Shown here piece after piece: positions 45,441 through 54,070 of a stretch of DNA of 64,000 nt. Location: assembly GCA_001662655.1 (NCBI GenBank), contig KV460215.1. The stretch is one strand, 5' to 3'. Position 1 is the first letter of the stretch. Each line of letters opens with the position of its first letter. The position numbers were made by a program, and so were the translations under genes. Under the pieces are notes generated by a model, which was given only the letters and a program-made list of their open reading frames with translations, ran no database searches and was not told where the DNA came from. The stretch comes from Pseudogymnoascus verrucosus (Eukaryota).

Positions 45441-46751
45441 ATGACGGAAAGCCAACGCAGCCACAATAAGGTATGTAGCCCCCAGACCTCCTCCCTGCGG
45501 AAACAAGACCACAGGACTAACAAACTCTTCCCAGCGAACATTCGGCGAGATGTCGAGCTCAATATCCATGGCCAGACGCCCCTCGGCCGACCCCTCGCCA
45601 TCCTTCCCCGGCTCGACCTTCACCTTCCCCACCCCTCCGCCACCACAGACACAAACACACTCCCAAGGCCAGCGCCGCACGCCGCATCCGCACAACCCTC
45701 CACGCTCCTCGCCCTTCAGCGTCATGCTCGACCCACGGCATCCCCCTTCTCGCCCGAGCCTTGACCGCCAGCCCACCGTCATCGATCTGACAGACGACCA
45801 CCATGAGCGCGCGCCCTCACAATCACGGCGCTCGTCACAGCGCTCTACTCTTCCCCCGCAGCTGGAGCGGTCGGATTACACGACACTTGGGGACGTCATC
45901 AGCATCGAATCCGACGACGATGACGACGAGGTCGAGATCGTATCCTCGCGAGCCCTCCCGTCACGACGACCCTCGGCCCCTCCTTCACGACTGCGGCTCC
46001 CCCGCCCACCTCGATCACCACGCCAACACGCCGGCCACCCGTGGCCTCATCTCCCCAGTATGCTCCCGCCGATGGACGCCCCGGAATCGATACTGGACAA
46101 TCCAAGCCTCCTTTTCGGCGGGCTCGCGGACATGTTCCCAGGCAGTTGGCGCAATCTGCAGGGAAACATGGAGCGGTACGTGTTGGGGCGGCAATCCGAA
46201 ATAGGGCCCATCCCGGTGCATATGCGTGGCGCGTCGATGAGGTTCCGTACATTTCCGCTCCATGAGCATGTGAGACAGGAGCCGAGGAAGGCAGAGCATG
46301 TGCCGCCGCCGCCGGTGGGTGAAGGATTCACGCGCTCGCCCAAGGAGGATGACGTGATTGTTTGTCCAGCGTGCGACGAGGAGTTGGTGGTTGGACCTGA
46401 GGAGCCGGCTGCGGGGACGACGCCTTCGTCGACGGGGAAGACGGCGGCAAAGGCAAAAGCTAGGAGTAGGAAGGATAGGGAGGAGCATCCATTTTGGGTG
46501 GTGAGGGAATGCGGTCATGTAAGTGTATTTCCCTTGCTCTCATTAAATCCGTTGAGATAGTGCATGTGCTAACATAGTACCAGGTCTACTGCAACAAATG
46601 CTACCAGAGCCGCAAGCCAGACACGAAGTCAACGAGCAAGAACTTATTCCCCGAGGTGCAGAGTGGCGCGAGGAAGGTCCCGCTGTGTGCGGTCGATGAC
46701 TGCACGAGCGAGGTTGGGGATAAGAAGTTCTGGGTTGGAGTATTTATGTGA
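45441..46751 (+). CDS. SIM-containing RING protein, SUMO-targeted ubiquitin ligase-like (Slx5/Rfp/RNF4 type)
   Basis: SIM-like VIDLTDD and VISIESDDDDDEVEIV; RING CPAC..(insert)..CGH|VYCNKC..CAVDDC. In-frame introns 45471-45534 and ~46519-46583. Confidence 0.75.
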
Positions 46752-48213
46752 CGAGTTTACGTTGCCGCGGACAAATGGGTTCGTTTTATGACGACTCGCC
46801 GATTTTTCGGCGCGGATTGTGTGGAGTATTCAAGAGGTACAGACAGAAAGGGATGGGTTACCATCTCTACGGCGTGGTATATGGACTGCGTTCCCATTCA
46901 GCACTCGACTGCTTTCGATCTCTGTGTTTGGTAAGGGTAACGGCAGTGGCCGTAGAACAGGAAGGGACAGGACAGGAGTCAACATCGGATTATCGACTAT
47001 TGGCTTCTATAAACCATGCATTGCATACAGCGCGGCGTACTACACTTTTGCTCTTTAGTTACTCTTCTCGGTGTTATTGGTTGTGGTTTTGTTATTTTAC
47101 GGTATGCTGGGGTGGGAAGGGGGCGGCTTATTTTTGGGAAAGGGGTGCTCACTTGGGCATTGGTAGATGGGAAGGGGGGACACAGCGAGTGATGGTATGG
47201 TCTTGAGTGGTGGCTATAGCTAGGGCGAAGAGTATGAAGTTTCTTCAGCTATGTGATAATTTTATGTGTATGATGGTGATCGATACGGCTTCGTTTTAAT
47301 AGTTACGAGTATGAGATATCTGTTAAACCGCTACTAATGTCCAAGTTCTAGGCTAGAGCTTCTGTTAATGAAGAAGCGGCTTATGCGCACTATCCCTTCA
47401 AAGAGGAAGAATGGTCACTTATGTCCAAGCCCTGAAGTAGAATTGCCTTTACTGAAGAAATAGATCCTAGGCACTGTTCTCTTAATTAGACAGGAGAGGT
47501 ATTGTAATAAAAATATATGACGTATGAATGAATTTATTGTGTATATTGTATCTTTTATTTTTATCATAGTGAGAATGAGAATATATTTTATTTTCCACAA
47601 CAACACATCAACCACCACCTAAAAACTATATTTTCCTCATCTATATCTCCTGTAGAAGGCATTACAAGAATATAGATAAACTCCCCTCTATTCTCCTTCC
47701 AAAGAACCACTTACCACTCACTCAAATGTCTATTGCGCACGTGACCAACGCACCTAATAAGGCGTGAGATGAGGTGAGGCTGAAGTCACAAACCCCAGCA
47801 CGGACGGGACTGTTAGTGGCAGGTACCTAGTCCAGCCCCGCGACCCCGCCTCATGCCCACTTCTTTTCCAGTACTATTCGGAGTTATACATACAAAGCTA
47901 CAGCCACCGCAGAGAAGGACAAAGAGTTGAAAGAAAGTGAAGTTGAAGGAAGTGAAGCGAATAGAAGGACGGAAGAGGATAGGGCATTCGACGACCAGGG
48001 CGTCTTTCGAGATCGACGTTTTAGACGCGGCTACTACTGTGCACTGCCAGATACCTTCGTGGGCGATCTACTTGTGAAAGCTGCACTGCGAATAGTACGG
48101 AACGACTTGGGCTTCTTAAGCAATACCGCACGACAAAGGACGTACAGGAGCGAGTGAGGGCATAGCTGCCGCGACACGACAACAACGAGGAGGACGATTC
48201 GAAAACTGACGCC

Positions 48214-51200
48214 ATGCCGAGCAGTACTACGATTAGGAATGCGGTGGCGCAGATGATGGGGATAACGGGGGCGTCGGAGAGGGTGGCCAGCAGTGTGAGT
48301 TTTGCCCTCTGAGCTGGAAGTTTTGGAGAGGGTGGAGGTGGGGAAGAGGGTGGTATGGTGTGGATGACGTGAGTCGTGGAGAATGTGTGCTGATGCTGGG
48401 GTGTGCAGGTGCTGAAGAAGCATAATTATAAGCTTGATGCTGCATGTGATGCGTAAGTGGATCTGTGTTTCTTTTGTTTATTTGCAATGCTGGAGGATGG
48501 GTGGTGGGAGAGATGAGATCGAGGAGGAGGATGAGTGTGTTGCTCGTACTCGGACGATTGAGCATACGGGACCCCGCACATGCGGAAGGAAGGAACAACC
48601 CGATCTTCGAACAAAAGGATGGAGGAGAAAAGAGCGACAGGAATGGAACCTAGGTTTGAGAGGGCTGCTCTTTCCATTTGGCTTGGTGGTGGAGCGAAAA
48701 CAGGCTATGATGCAACAGAAGCTGGGAAGGGAAGCTGCGACGCCGGCACAGGACCCAGGACGGAAGCTACGACGGGAGGTGGCAACCATGATATGAACCG
48801 GAGGAAGCTACGATGGTGGCTGCGGCCATACCATAAACAGAGGAAGCGACGATAGTGACTGCGGCCATATCGAGAACCAGAGAAGCTACGACTTGACTAC
48901 AGAGATATCGACAAATGGGGAAAGTACGATGATTCCCTCACGTCCTGAACTGAGGGAAACCACAACAATGGCACAGGTCAAAATTCGGTGAACTACCCAG
49001 GACGCAAAGTGACTCAGGTCTGGACCACATATTTTTATCGACCCATGCTTTGTCAGTTATATGCTGGCTGAAAGAGGGGACAGGACTCGCAAATCGCAGA
49101 ACTGCACGACGCACGGCGCAATTGATCTTGGAGCGCAGGAGCAGGAGACACATTCGTCGGTACAGGCGTAAGGAATTTGACAAACACCGCGCTCTGGTGA
49201 AGACTCAGGGAGCACCCCATGAAGCGTCATGGTTGACCCGAAGGGATTAAAGAGGCTGTTCAGCGATGTACTGCAGGAACAGGAGGAACTCCTTGAGAAC
49301 AGTGAGGTTATTCTCGATTCGGAGTCACCTTCGGAATTTGCTTCGAGGGTCTATGGCGACCAACCGGAATCACAATCGCGAAAGCGACGGCGTGCTTCCA
49401 TACCAGAGCAAACCGAGCTCAACGCCAACATCGCCCGCTTTGATCATATCCCTCAGGACGAAACAAGTTTCAATCCCACTGCAGCTTCCTTGCCTCCGAA
49501 CCAACTTGTACCCCCTTCAAATCTGACCGCCAGGCCGGTTTTTCCACACCGGACTTTACCACTGCCAGTTCCAACTGCCGCGCCGCGACACGACCCATTT
49601 ACCGCTGCCACGAATGCGCTGTCACGCCCAGCGCCACCTCCAAATTCCTTGGGAATACCCTCTCCACATACGGGGCTGTCTCAACCACCAAGGACCCATC
49701 CATATCCTTCAAACATGGTATCAGCAACTCCTGAAAACGAGGGATCGCACAGGACCCCGACTCGTACACCACTGCCAACTATGCCAACTACGCAGGTTGT
49801 ACCTCCGACTGCTCAAGATACATGGTTAGGAGTTGTATTACAATCGACGGATCTTTCTATACATCAGCCGAGAGCCCGATCTGTTAGTATGCCACACGTT
49901 TTGTCTTACGGATCAAGTTCGAGCCTGGAACCTCGAGTAGAGGGTGCTGTTGCGGTTGCGGATGAAGTTGCGGATGCAGTTGCGGATGCAGATGTAGACG
50001 CTGTTGCGGATGCGGATGCCCAACCATCGACACTTCAAAATGCTGACCCAACTTTGCCGAGAGCGCAATCATTATCACCATTTCAAAATGCCCGCCTATA
50101 TCGTCAAAGAGCGCAATCGTCGCCTTTGTCGATGCGGGGCGGGGCATTATGGACAGCTGCCTCGACTCCTTATCAGAATGGTCAGACACCTGTCCAAAAT
50201 ACCCCACTCCCATTTCAGCATGGCCAGTTTTACTATCAGAATGGCTATTCTCAGGATGCTCAGCCTTGCTCTCAGAATGACTACGTCCAGAATGCCCAGA
50301 ATTACTCACAGAATGGCTACGTTCAGAATTGCTACGCTCAGCCGTACGATCATAATCGTTTGGCTTTGTTCCAGAATTACCCAAGTCACTTTCCGAATTA
50401 TTCGCTTCCATTTTCACACTCCAGCGGGGTGACGGCTCGGCAAGCCTCCCGTTCTCCAAGCAGTGGGGGTTATAGTTCAAGCAGTGGAGGTCATAGTTCT
50501 CCAAGTCGTCGAAGTTATAGTCCTCCACCAGCTCCTCGTCGTCCTTATCGGGAACGGATAGCCCCTAGTTCACCAGTCCCTGTCGTGCCGCCCGTTTTAG
50601 GTTGGCTTTCCAAGCAAGAGCAACTGTTTGGTCCCCCTATCGGAATTATGCGTCACTTATACTTGATTTGGAGATCCGCTAACGCCTTGGGTCTACAGAT
50701 ACTATGCCTCAGGCGGCAAGCCGGCCGTTGCTCCTACTCCAGTCGAAGATAAGTCGCTGGCAAGTTTGAGTAACTTATTCGAGAAATACAGAGGTATGTA
50801 TCAAGGCAACAAACATAGAGGTACCCTATAGCCCTCTCTGACTTCTGATGGTAGGGTCGGATGATGAAAAAGATTCCATCAGCGTTGACGGCACGATGGC
50901 ATATCTCACAGACCTCGCTGTTAATCTCGAAGATGCTTCGTCCCTCATTCCACTAGAAATTGTCCAGGCTCCGGCAATTGGGGAGATGACGAGAGATGGG
51001 TTTGTAAAGGGCTGGCAGAAGGCTGGGTAAGTTCACCTCCTTGTTCCTACAAGAAGTTACTGACCCGATCCAGAGTCGACTCTAGAAGCACGTTAGACAC
51101 AATACCCAAGCAAAAAGCATACATAGCTAGCCAGACAAAACTCCTCTCCTCCGACACCGCCCTTTTCAAGCGTGTCTACAAACACACCTTTGTCTGCTCC

Positions 51201-51527
51201 AAAGAGCGTAGTCAGAAAGCGCTACCTCTCGAGAACGCCCTTGTGTACTGGGAGATGCTCTTCTCAAGCCCTGGCATGTGCTGGGCTTCTGGGACGACGG
51301 ACTGGCTGAAGCTGTGGCTCGAGTTCCTGAACGCCAAGTGGACGAAGACCGTTAATAAGGACATGTGGAACCAGACGCTTGAGTTCTTCACCAAGAGCAG
51401 GGAAGACGAGACGATGAGCTTTTGGTCTGAGGAGGGTGCGTGGCCGAGCGTCATTGACGACTTCGTCGTCTGGGTCCGAGAGAAGAGGGGCGGCGGAGCA
51501 GTGGCAGATAATATGGAGACGGATTAA
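48214..51527 (+). CDS. DCN1: Defective in cullin neddylation protein 1 (UBA-like + PONY/DUF298)
   Basis: Exons 48214-48294 (MPSSTTIRNAVAQMMGITGASERVASS), 48409-48452 (VLKKHNYKLDAACDA), 50699-50793 (YYASGG..LFEKYR), 50855-51026 and 51074-51527 (FKRVYKHTF..QKAL..KDMWNQ..EGAWPSVIDDFV). All junction phases are consistent. Confidence 0.9.
49229..50752 (+). CDS. 507-codon low-complexity ORF nested in DCN1 intron 2 (orphan gene or alternative exon)
   Basis: Uninterrupted ATG-initiated ORF; Pro-rich, with (VAD[AE])n, QNG/Y repeats and an RS-rich end; no recognisable domain. Confidence 0.5.
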   Translation: MVDPKGLKRLFSDVLQEQEELLENSEVILDSESPSEFASRVYGDQPESQSRKRRRASIPEQTELNANIARFDHIPQDETSFNPTAASLPPNQLVPPSNLTARPVFPHRTLPLPVPTAAPRHDPFTAATNALSRPAPPPNSLGIPSPHTGLSQPPRTHPYPSNMVSATPENEGSHRTPTRTPLPTMPTTQVVPPTAQDTWLGVVLQSTDLSIHQPRARSVSMPHVLSYGSSSSLEPRVEGAVAVADEVADAVADADVDAVADADAQPSTLQNADPTLPRAQSLSPFQNARLYRQRAQSSPLSMRGGALWTAASTPYQNGQTPVQNTPLPFQHGQFYYQNGYSQDAQPCSQNDYVQNAQNYSQNGYVQNCYAQPYDHNRLALFQNYPSHFPNYSLPFSHSSGVTARQASRSPSSGGYSSSSGGHSSPSRRSYSPPPAPRRPYRERIAPSSPVPVVPPVLGWLSKQEQLFGPPIGIMRHLYLIWRSANALGLQILCLRRQAGRCSYSSRR

Positions 51528-51842
51528 GGGGTTCTCGACTCTCGAGTAATAAGGTATTTGAGGCTGGGCTGGTTATGATGCAATGTGGCATATGCTCATG
51601 ATGAACATATTTCCTTTGCGGTCGAGCGAGCATTCGAGGCGTCTCATGGGTAATGCGCAGGGGGGAGGTCCTATTCTAGATGACAGTATCGGTAAACAGT
51701 TGCCAGATCATTAAGACGAAGTACTGCTAAGTGAATGCTGAGTTTATAAATCGAATCCCATTCGCCAATAATGCACATAATATACAGCCAGTCTTACAAT
51801 ATCTTTGCAAGCATTCCCACGCTCTTTGTCTTCCCCAATGGC

Positions 51843-52322
51843 CTACGACCTGCGCTCCCTCACCGACCACGGAATCGACCCCCCTATCCTCGCCAGCGTA
51901 TCCAGCTTTCCATCCCCGAGCTTCACGCTCCCGAACTTGATCATTCGCGGGTCGAGACTGAGCGTCTTGCGCACCTGGTCCTGCACGGCGCTGTTGGCGT
52001 CGTAGCGCAGGACGAAGTGGTGTCCGTCGTGGTAGACTGCCTGATGCTTGGTGGTGCGTTTCGGGAGCGCGGTGACGCCCCAGTTTGTGATTCCGCGAAT
52101 CGTGCCGCCGTTTTGGAGGATGAGGGATCCTGCTGTGCGGGCAATACTGGGGAGGGTTAGTGGGCGAAAGAGGCGCGGGTGAATGGGGGCTGAGATGGGG
52201 GAGGACGAACTCTTTCACCTCGGCGAGGCTGCCGGGGCGGACCTGGAGGGAAATTAGCAATTGGTTCGTGCGGACATAGACGGATAGCTATAGCTTACCA
52301 CCGCAATCAATTCGTATAACAT
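51843..52322 (-). CDS. MRP17: Mitochondrial ribosomal protein bS6m
   Basis: MLYELIAV|VRPGSLAEVKE|IARTAG.LIL..GGTIRGITNWG...GHHFVLRYD..L.LDPRMIK; two introns. Confidence 0.92.
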
Positions 52323-52548: not shown

Positions 52549-54070
52549 ATGTCAAAAAGAGCTGCGGAGGAATTCGAGAGGGGCAACGCCCCGTTGAAGG
52601 GAGGAAAGAGAGTTGAGAAGGCAGATGATGTAGACGGTCTGGAGTTTGAGGACGAGTTCGAGGATGAGTTTGAGAGCGAGGATGAGATTTTAGAAGCTGG
52701 AGTGGATGGGAGACCAGATGCCGAGAGGGAAGCAGAAGAAAAAGCTGGTATGTTTATTTTTTGCGCCTCTATGCTGTCTGGCGCAAAGCTAATTATTCCC
52801 AGAGGCGATGGAGGTAGACCAACAGACGTTCATAGTCGGGCGAAACAAGCTCGAGCCTGGCCAGACGCTCTCCCCTGATCTCTCAACATACGAAATGCTG
52901 CACGCTCTCAGCACTCCCTGGCCCTGCCTGTCCTTCGATATTATCAAAGACAACCTCGGCGATAACCGTACCTCGTTCCCCGCAACCATGTACGCTGTTG
53001 CAGGCACGCAGGCCGATGCCAAGCGCGAGAAAGAGAACCAGATCATGGTTATGAAGTTCAGCGGCCTTTCCCGCAACGAACGCGACCAAGACTCTGAGTC
53101 TGACTCCGACGAGGATGAAGATTCGGATCCCATCCTCGAATCAGCCTCTATCCCGCTCAACACCACCACAAACCGCATCCGCGCCCACCAAACCCCAGCG
53201 TCGGACTCCTCCCGCCCCCCTACGACTCTCACAGCCACAATGACAGAGGCAGGCCAAGTCCTGATCCACGATGTCACGCCACACCTTACCTCCTTTGACA
53301 CCCCAGGCTTCACTATCACCCCCCAGCACAACAAGCCCCTATCGACTCTGCGCATGCACAAGGCCGAAGGGTACGCCGTGGACTGGTCCCCTCTCATCCC
53401 GACGGGCAAGCTCGTAACCGGTGATAACACTGGTTCTATTTATGTCACTACCCGGACCCAAGGCGAGGGCTGGGCCACCGACTCCCGCGCCCTGACTGGC
53501 CACACGGGCTCCGTTGAGGAGCTCCAGTGGTCGCCTTCGGAGCGCAACGTCTTCGCCTCTGCGTCTAGCGACGGCACCATCAAAGTCTGGGATGTGCGCT
53601 CCAAGTCTCGCTCCGCAGCCATGAGCGTCCAGGTTTCGGAAACAGATGTGAACGTCATGTCCTGGTCGCCGCTTACGACGCATCTCCTCGCGTCTGGCGC
53701 CGATGACGGTGTCTGGGCTGTTTGGGATCTGCGCAATTGGAAGCCGGCGCCTACACCAGGAGCAAGCTCGAAGCCTACCCCTGTCGCGAGCTTTGGGTTC
53801 CACAAGGAGCAGATTACGAGTGTGGAGTGGCATCCGACCGAGGACTCGATTGTGGCTGTTGCTGCTGGAGACGACACGCTTACACTGTGGGATCTGGCCG
53901 TGGAACTTGATGAAGAGGAAGCGAGGGGTGGAGAGGAGGGTGTGCCGCCGCAGCTGCTGTTTGTGCATTATTTGGAGAGAGTAAAGGAGGCGCATTGGCA
54001 CCCGCAGATCCCAGGCGCGCTGATTGGAACGGGAGAGAGCTTTAATGTCTTCAAGACGATTAGTGTTTAG
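52549..54070 (+). CDS. RRB1: Ribosome assembly WD40 protein Rrb1/GRWD1
   Basis: Acidic N-terminus, YEMLH..WPCLSFD, GYAVDWS, SVEELQWSP and PPQLLFVH motifs; intron 52748-52802. Confidence 0.95.

Follow-up and report, generated by a model that had tools for sequence, protein, structure and literature searches.

The question considered here is raised by a stretch of 64,000 nucleotides (nt) from contig KV460215.1 of Pseudogymnoascus verrucosus (assembly GCA_001662655.1), referred to below as the window: what is an open reading frame (ORF) of 507 codons doing inside an intron of DCN1, on the same strand as its host? An earlier inspection of the letters alone, which we call the sequence-only reading, had described DCN1 as split by an intron of 2,246 nt and had offered three readings of the ORF within it, namely an in-frame cassette between the UBA-like and PONY domains, an alternative first exon replacing the UBA-like domain, or an independent nested gene. 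All of its coordinates are correct on the sequence, and the nested gene is the best fit of the three, given genus-only homologues, shuffled-sequence controls and a fixed position in the host. Our preferred explanation, to which we give about an even chance, is that the ORF is a nested gene on the strand of its host, young and restricted to the genus, which encodes a disordered protein and has the downstream exons of DCN1 in its RNA.

The host gene and its long intron

DCN1 is a five-exon gene on the plus strand (48214-51527), and each of its introns (114, 2,246, 61 and 47 nt) is bounded by GT..AG. Exon 1 (48214-48294) holds the start codon and the first part of the UBA-like domain, and is separated by intron 1 (48295-48408) from the 44-nt exon 2 (48409-48452), in which that domain ends (...DAACDA). 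Intron 2 (48453-50698) opens with GTAAGT directly after ...GATGC at 48452 and has a CTAAC at 50679-50683, 16 nt 5' of its 3' splice site, where the acceptor reads CTACAG/ATACTAT and the first base of exon 3 is 50699. Exon 3 (50699-50793), intron 3 (50794-50854), exon 4 (50855-51026), intron 4 (51027-51073) and the coding part of exon 5 (51074-51527, stop codon TAA at 51525-51527) follow. The joined exons translate without a stop into 281 amino acids, with ...KLDAACDA-YYASGGKP... spanning intron 2. Within the DCN1 gene this intron is 20-48 times as long as the other three, in line with the disproportion that the sequence-only reading had described.

Is so long an intron really removed? Four public runs were compared with window positions 48000-51700. 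The RNA label of the run X1 is a guess, and its RNA origin rests on its joints. Record 1 of X1, a contig of 1,795 nt, consists of 48000-48294, the 44 letters of exon 2 (an exact match at contig positions 382-425), 50699-50791, 50853-51025 and 51073-51700, and differs from the window at 5 of about 1,190 aligned letters. Its joints are 48294>48409, 48452>50699 (2,246 nt skipped), 50791>50853 (cut at +2 in the exon model, and found also in X2) and 51025>51073 (cut at +1), all of them GT..AG. Since four exact GT..AG joints lie in a single contig, the contig derives from spliced RNA. Intron 2 is genuine and its removal yields the canonical 281-residue protein, so the joining of 48452 to 50699 on which the sequence-only reading had staked the split is present, and the intron that bears the ORF is spliced out of the DCN1 mRNA.

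The same arrangement is found in other material. The run X19, which behaves as DNA of a close relative, covers 48414-51443 in one unspliced contig of 3,017 nt, and because the layout recurs there it is not a misassembly peculiar to the window record. The metagenome contig L001, the only locus that came from a single-protein scan of metagenome contigs, has this layout too, and is 99.6% identical to the window across 3,152 nt (same species). The run X24 keeps intron 4 (50838-51133); it therefore behaves as DNA and says nothing on RNA. A transposon or multicopy insert, the other origin that would have undone the sequence-only reading, was rejected: the ORF has no Pfam family, blastn and tblastx found no second copy in the window, there are no long terminal or inverted repeats, and in the protein searches the family has about one copy per species (12 matches in 1.84 billion representatives).

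Several lesser observations concern these contigs and the intron. Compared with the window, X19 contigs skip 121 nt in the 5' untranslated region (48084-48206) and 91 nt inside intron 1 (48314-48406), with ends that are not GT..AG; these are probably length differences between strains. Record 17 of X2 matches only two short pieces of exons 4 and 5 (50890-50917 and 51096-51122), separated by 131 further letters, and its loose ends do not resemble the window; it is probably DCN1 of another organism in a mixed sample. The inverted repeats I3 and I16 had suggested a duplex between the 5' splice site and the branch point, but this was discarded, as the best duplex is no better than shuffles (z -1.05; 67 of 500 shuffles and 1 of 25 other intron pieces were as good). 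Rfam, searched over the region at E up to 1, returned only a sub-threshold SNORD46 match (50854-50894, 21 bits against a gathering score of 40, E 0.35), which we take as chance.

The host protein is an ordinary DCN1, a co-E3 of cullin neddylation with a UBA-like and a PONY domain. Exon 5 matches the PONY family (Pfam Cullin_binding, PF03556) at 3.7e-34 and 118 bits over the whole 118-position profile, and in a sequence search of the PDB the solved chains of DCNL1/2 and yeast Dcn1 align with exon 5 at 6e-18 to 7e-11, those of DCNL1/2 at 6e-18 to 2e-17. UBA_4 scores 0.0039 on exon 1 alone, under the cut-off. In P0050, a 281-residue protein of Pseudogymnoascus sp. VKM F-3775 with Cullin_binding at 6e-33, it scores 1.1e-10, above the cut-off, and residues 1-53 of P0050 are identical by eye to those of the window protein, so we count the UBA-like domain as present by this proxy. 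It is this N-terminal identity, together with the domain scores of P0050 and the exon 5 match, that identifies the host. The D of kDmWN, the A of GAWP and the D of IDDF, which may, with a passage of PMC4886823 as a guide, be the DAD-patch positions that bind cullin, are all kept in the window protein on alignment with DCNL1/2.

The intronic open reading frame

The ORF (49229-50752, plus strand) has 507 codons and a stop. It is intact and, as the sequence-only reading had noted, its end overlaps exon 3 in another frame, so that it is not nested wholly within the intron: its last 54 nt (18 codons and the stop) lie in exon 3. Such a frame is not a product of chance. In 2000 dinucleotide-preserving shuffles of the intron, read in six frames, the longest open frame had a mean of 141 and a maximum of 274 codons, and none of the 2000 reached 470. 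With 13 other long ORFs of the window as training set, a frame-specific codon score came to +0.105 per codon in the frame of the ORF (training ORFs 0.056-0.302), as against -0.206 and -0.289 in the other two frames, and was negative in all three plus-strand frames of the 776 nt of intron 5' of the ORF. That 5' part holds a 39-nt tandem repeat (48801-48891, 2.3 copies) and five occurrences of the motif GGAAGCTACGA within 48730-48931; the repeat or motif could be part of a promoter or leader of the nested ORF.

If the ORF is translated, its protein would be rich in proline, serine and glutamine (Pro 13%, Ser 12%), with YQNG-type repeats and a repeat of Ala, Asp and Val. It is predicted to be almost wholly disordered: AlphaFold2, run on a seven-row alignment, gave a mean predicted local distance difference test score (pLDDT) of 43.7, with 394 of 507 residues below 50 and helices only at 4-23 and 471-486. 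The protein matched 0 Pfam families, gave no usable match in the ESM Atlas and had 0 sequence matches in the PDB.

Distribution and conservation of the family

Two protein searches define the reach of the family. In a word-seeded search of 5.8 billion proteins, 10 of 8000 scored candidates were matches, and a profile built from seven homologues and run against 1.84 billion representatives gave 12 matches, nine of them at 1e-10 or better and eight at 1e-30 or better. The two weakest profile matches (P0015 and P0016) proved on inspection to be unrelated low-complexity proteins and were left out of the family counts, as were P0037 and P0046, which belong to the gene upstream of DCN1 and are not homologues of the ORF. 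Within both searches all named homologues are from Pseudogymnoascus, and the unnamed Logan and ENA members carry no taxonomic placement. Judged by these matches, the family is restricted to this genus as far as the searches reach.

The position of the ORF is fixed as well. Public gene models that fuse pieces of it to DCN1 exons put it in the same intron across Pseudogymnoascus genomes: P. verrucosus (P0038), 24MN13 (P0002), VKM F-4519 (P0043), WSF 3629 (P0021), F-4513 (P0009), F-3557/F-4514 (P0011, P0017), F-4515/F-4517 (P0028, P0029), 23342-1-I1 (P0049), 03VT05 (P0117) and P. destructans (P0123). Elsewhere among Leotiomycetes and Sordariomycetes, named DCN1 proteins are mostly 262-333 amino acids long, with a few longer models among them; those of Leotiomycetes are mostly 262-284, near the 281 of the window.

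Aligned to the window ORF protein, homologues are 45-66% identical (35-54% by BLASTP) and carry numerous insertions and deletions. Dozens of such changes have not closed the frame, which can be read from the start region through to the conserved tail in the window, P0003, P0006, P0007, P0008 and P0018/P0011, and over its whole length in no fewer than six diverged lineages; in P0005, P0010, P0012 and P0049 it is open across most of the ORF length. The start region is conserved (MVDPKGLK, MVDSKGSK, MINPWESK, MVNPIESK), and conservation beyond it falls in islands more uneven than in any of 2000 column shuffles, including NTPLPFQ, PNYSLPF and, the strongest, LF(G/S)PP(I/V)GIMRHLY. A basic stretch of the window protein, RKRRR, is not conserved in homologues. 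Across many diverged species the frame has remained open, while the sequence itself has drifted almost without restraint. Over a much shorter distance, 14 substitutions and a single in-frame deletion of 12 nt separate the ORF of X19 from that of the window; there is no frameshift, and the two 1-nt deletions of X19 (48402 and 48774) lie outside the ORF.

The best-conserved part of the family is the final 75 nt or so of intron 2 (LFGPPIGIMRHLY...). The proteins of five relatives end in ...ANTLGL, ...ANTLGP or ...ANALDL, and the window has ...ANALGL just 5' of the acceptor. Judging from proteins alone, the ORFs of these five relatives would stop at or beside the host 3' splice site, unlike that of the window, which runs 18 codons into exon 3.

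RNA that carries the open reading frame

Is the ORF present in RNA other than as excised intron? Record 16 of X2, a contig of 593 nt, is unbroken over 50343-50791 and then joined to 50853-50996, and it is RNA-derived because intron 3 has been spliced out of it. In this contig the last 410 nt of the ORF are continuous with exon 3. RNA bearing the ORF, over these last 410 nt, therefore exists and shares downstream exons of DCN1; it runs into host exons 3 and 4, so any 3' end belonging to a nested gene here lies no earlier than exon 4. Read along this form, the ORF meets its stop at 50750-50752 in a frame other than that of DCN1. The 73-nt candidate mini-intron at 50626-50698 (plus strand, donor GTTTGG) is retained, and hence the ORF in this RNA is not fused to the PONY domain.

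X1 and X2 also contain small contigs, at 48588-48746, 49059-49250, 50041-50281 and 50265-50515. X2 has no contigs on 48124-49983, nor has X1 on 49364-50231; gaps and contig depths were not interpreted. Contigs of this kind show no transcript starts, ends, strand, poly(A) site or minor forms, and so an internal promoter and unspliced pre-mRNA look alike in them. The letters upstream of the ORF suggest where a start may lie. There are 18 ATGs between the 5' splice site and the ATG at 49229, only one of which (49219) comes after 49062, and, given translation of the ORF, this distribution speaks for an internal start. The late ATG opens a five-codon upstream ORF whose stop (49234-49236) lies past the start of the long ORF at 49229, so that the two overlap.

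The preferred explanation, a nested gene, would then work as follows. Transcription of the ORF would begin inside intron 2, probably in the last 170 nt or so before the ATG at 49229, since that is the only leader with few upstream ATGs. The nested gene would have no terminator of its own, and DCN1 exons 3-5 would serve as its 3' untranslated region. In the window species the protein would continue for 18 codons of exon 3 in a frame other than that of DCN1, and so remain unfused to the PONY domain; in most relatives its end seems to coincide with the 3' splice site of the host. Splicing of intron 2 and expression of the ORF would be mutually exclusive fates of RNA from the locus.

Does the open reading frame make a functional product?

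A number of observations weigh against the nested gene, most of them pointing to an ORF with no functional product, which would be either a decaying relic or a frame kept open by repeat-rich, stop-poor composition, the intronic contigs being unspliced DCN1 pre-mRNA. The GC content at third codon positions of the ORF is 0.43, below every one of the 13 reference ORFs (0.47-0.71). The part at about 49884-50432 is open in three of six frames, the plus-strand frames across the ORF contain only 9 and 15 stops, and the protein has neither domain nor fold. The contigs at 48588-48746, found in X1 and in the DNA-like X24, lie far upstream of the ORF and are explained by plain unspliced pre-mRNA no less well than by an internal promoter.

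Constraint on the amino acids is not detectable among close strains. When the unique differences of X19, X2, X24 and L001 are pooled, the ORF has 16 non-synonymous and 6 synonymous changes, and the ratio of non-synonymous to synonymous rates (dN/dS) is 0.88 (p=0.81 against neutrality); X19 alone gives 9 and 5, with dN/dS 0.59 (p=0.36). The DCN1 exons, for comparison, have 2 and 6, with dN/dS 0.09 (p=0.002). The sequence-only reading had proposed dN/dS as a check on its ORF, and among these close strains neither value is distinguishable from neutral.

The frame is also broken in places. In P. destructans the proteins P0004 and P0123 track the window frame only to about residue 268 and then match the minus strand of 50076-50420, after which P0123 goes on in another frame; a piece of about 340 nt (50076-50420) from the repeat region of the ORF appears to be inverted there. 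The contig-derived P0013 and P0014 change frame part-way, through what could be real breaks or contig errors. Finally, the tail in WSF 3629 is read in another frame (PLSELCVTYTGLGDPLTPWVY...), which fits the window letters minus one base of a run of C and continues in phase into exon 3. Because this tail is in another frame, its conservation may lie at the nucleotide level, and the comparison hints at the 3' splice region of the long intron, or at a mini-intron, as the thing conserved rather than protein.

Against an ORF devoid of product stand the shuffles that keep composition and never exceed 274 codons, the frames open end to end in diverged lineages, the conserved start region and motif islands, and the lower density of substitutions that X19 has in the ORF, with 14 over 1524 nt, compared with 11 over the 776 nt of non-coding intron. 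We consider it improbable that the ORF has no functional product. The proviso of the sequence-only reading, that an ORF untranscribed and disrupted in close relatives would refute it, is answered in two ways: RNA with the 3' part of the ORF is present in X2, and the frame is open in at least six lineages and broken in P. destructans.

Public gene models, a fused isoform and a cassette exon

The public record for the window species is a fusion. P0038 (XP_059319876.1 / OBT98677.2 in RefSeq/GenBank, 'Scaffold-type E3 ligase', P. verrucosus, 705 amino acids) equals the window ORF over residues 1-466, then passes through ...QEQL-YYASGG... into exons 3-5 and omits the UBA exons. It maps to 49229 to about 50625 and then exon 3, which is exactly the donor at 50626 that the sequence-only reading had proposed. 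The genome paper (PMC5750222) reports annotation with funannotate v0.1.8 and poly(A) RNA sequencing made 'to assist with genome annotation', a circumstance that lends the model some weight.

Could this model be right? Transcription would start in intron 2, translation would begin at the ATG at 49229, and removal of the 73-nt mini-intron would give a 705-residue protein in which a disordered N-terminus replaces the UBA-like domain. The frame at the candidate sites 49263/49264 and 50625/50626 is phase 2, like exons 2 and 3, as the sequence-only reading had stated, and the mini-intron, phase 2 on both sides, would share its CTAAC and acceptor with the long intron. In 9 of the 9 sequences reaching the tail, the Leu-Phe pair whose codons provide the GT of its donor is kept, predictors took the same donor in F-3557 and F-4515, and the stretch past it tolerates the frameshift of WSF 3629, as an intron would. 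RNA in which the 3' part of the ORF is joined to exons 3-4 does exist.

The sole RNA contig across the site (X2 record 16) nevertheless retains the 73 nt. The usual fungal donor consensus is GTRWGT, beside which GTTTGG looks weak. Three near-identical genomes leave the ORF at different places, about 50625 in P0038, about 50347 in P0002 and about 50599>50673 in P0043, which is a mark of ab initio prediction, and all three models miss the UBA exons proven by the RNA contig. In 8 of 9 sequences, moreover, no stop interrupts the tail before the splice site, and the helix predicted at residues 471-486 falls in the stretch that the mini-intron would remove. No joint 50625>50699 occurs in any RNA contig of the runs, although a minor form may escape assembly into contigs. 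When residues 425-525 of P0038 were searched against shorter proteins, there were three matches, none across the junction, the best covering 58% on the exon 3 side, and no fused form derived from Logan is among the cluster members listed, which is weak evidence as those contigs are short. We regard the fused isoform as unlikely. The alternative first exon of the sequence-only reading thus survives in part: the 3' part of the ORF runs into exon 3, which is in turn joined to exon 4 by splicing, but with the 73 nt retained it is not in frame with the downstream DCN1 exons and no PONY fusion results.

A cassette exon at 49264-50625 would place a 454-residue disordered linker between the UBA exons and exon 3. 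Both of its sites are phase 2, and models from two other species do contain UBA, the whole ORF and PONY (P0028 of F-4515, 904 amino acids, and P0011 of F-3557, 766 amino acids). The acceptor differs by model, however, lying before the ATG in P0011 and P0028 and after it in the window (TTCAG/C at 49263/49264, plus strand), where a TGA stands in frame three codons 5' of the ATG at 49229. No RNA contig of the runs has the joint 48452>49264 or any other joint into the ORF, within the same limit of contigs on minor forms, and filamentous fungi do not usually skip an exon as long as 1.4 kb. The isoform switch that the sequence-only reading had imagined, giving a neddylation E3 a large disordered region through such a cassette, found no support in the contigs, and we think a cassette highly improbable.

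Read together, the public models disagree among themselves, P0021 simply reading straight through. The canonical 281-residue model that the RNA supports is held by only one genome, VKM F-3775 (P0050).

Neighbouring genes

Upstream of DCN1 lies a 336-codon ORF (45550-46560, plus strand) whose homologues P0037 and P0046 (397 amino acids) end in a Cys/His-rich segment (CPACDEE...ECGHVYCNKCY), which is probably a zinc finger of RING type; the gene probably has an intron close to its 3' end. Proteins of this type, 383-397 amino acids long, oddly share a 90% cluster (cluster 10) with the intronic ORF. Downstream there is a WD-repeat-like ORF of 420 codons (52808-54070, plus strand), and the region 51771-52160 was also noted. 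The spliced X1 contig extends 477 nt beyond the part compared up to 51700, so that the DCN1 3' untranslated region or an overlapping neighbour transcript reaches about 52180.

Discussion

Nested genes and alternative first exons are both known kinds of arrangement. What is unusual here is a same-strand case in a fungus that ends at the host 3' splice site, is found genus-wide and has been mis-modelled in at least five ways. Pairs of host and nested genes are well described in Drosophila and mammals. The locus resembles them in having coding sequence in a host intron and a host mRNA made by splicing it out. It differs in belonging to a filamentous fungus whose other DCN1 introns are 47-114 nt, in lying on the same strand as its host, and in leaving no room for a 3' end of its own, the ORF ending at or past the host 3' splice site and its RNA entering host exons. 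Three articles (PMC3814207, PMC5174743, PMC11694760) describe a gene inside the intron of another and indicate that nested genes tend to be young. Our literature search, confined to one library, for nested genes in fungi, filamentous fungi included, or in Pseudogymnoascus found no fungal case, and found no paper on this locus or on fungal DcnA gene structure.

As a DCN1, the spliced window gene has the same UBA-like and PONY architecture as DCN1/DCUN1D1-2 (yeast Dcn1, human DCNL1/2), and what sets Pseudogymnoascus apart from other DCN1 is that the boundary between the two domains carries a 2.2-kb intron with a coding ORF. An RNA with the nested ORF followed by DCN1 exons 3-5 would also recall the polycistronic or read-through RNAs of fungi. 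Polycistronic mRNAs are reported from mushroom-forming fungi (PMC4503453). Those of basidiomycetes join neighbouring whole genes, whereas here the downstream part would be just the 3' two-thirds of the host coding sequence, entered mid-way. With taxonomically restricted or orphan genes the ORF shares its confinement to one genus, the lack of a domain, disorder, low GC content at third codon positions, weak codon bias and high dN/dS. A de novo gene requires a non-coding ancestral state in an outgroup, and the ORF is shown here as genus-restricted only.

If instead the fused isoform were real, it would resemble mammalian DCNL3, DCNL4 and DCNL5, which have a PONY domain and an unstructured N-terminus but no UBA domain. 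Those are separate genes, while here one gene would have two promoters, and the fusion is absent from the RNA contigs. It is a doubtful prospect that one DCN1 locus makes two neddylation co-E3 forms through promoter and splice-site choice, a UBA-PONY protein and a 705-residue form with a disordered N-terminus. Were it true, a single gene would reproduce what mammals do with the separate genes for DCNL1/2 and DCNL3-5, and the exon for the N-terminus would be one that originated inside an intron, in the lineage of Pseudogymnoascus.

In summary, the gene model of this locus is corrected, in that RNA gives a canonical UBA-PONY DCN1 where public records hold at least five mutually inconsistent fusion models. 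Under the reading that we prefer, a nested gene, the layout, unusual for a filamentous fungus, would force a choice at the RNA level between DCN1 and the RNA of the ORF. With its frame kept and its sequence nearly free, the ORF offers a clean candidate for study of how a young gene for a disordered protein may arise and be maintained, in a genus for which more than a dozen public genomes exist and in which the bat pathogen P. destructans has let the ORF decay.

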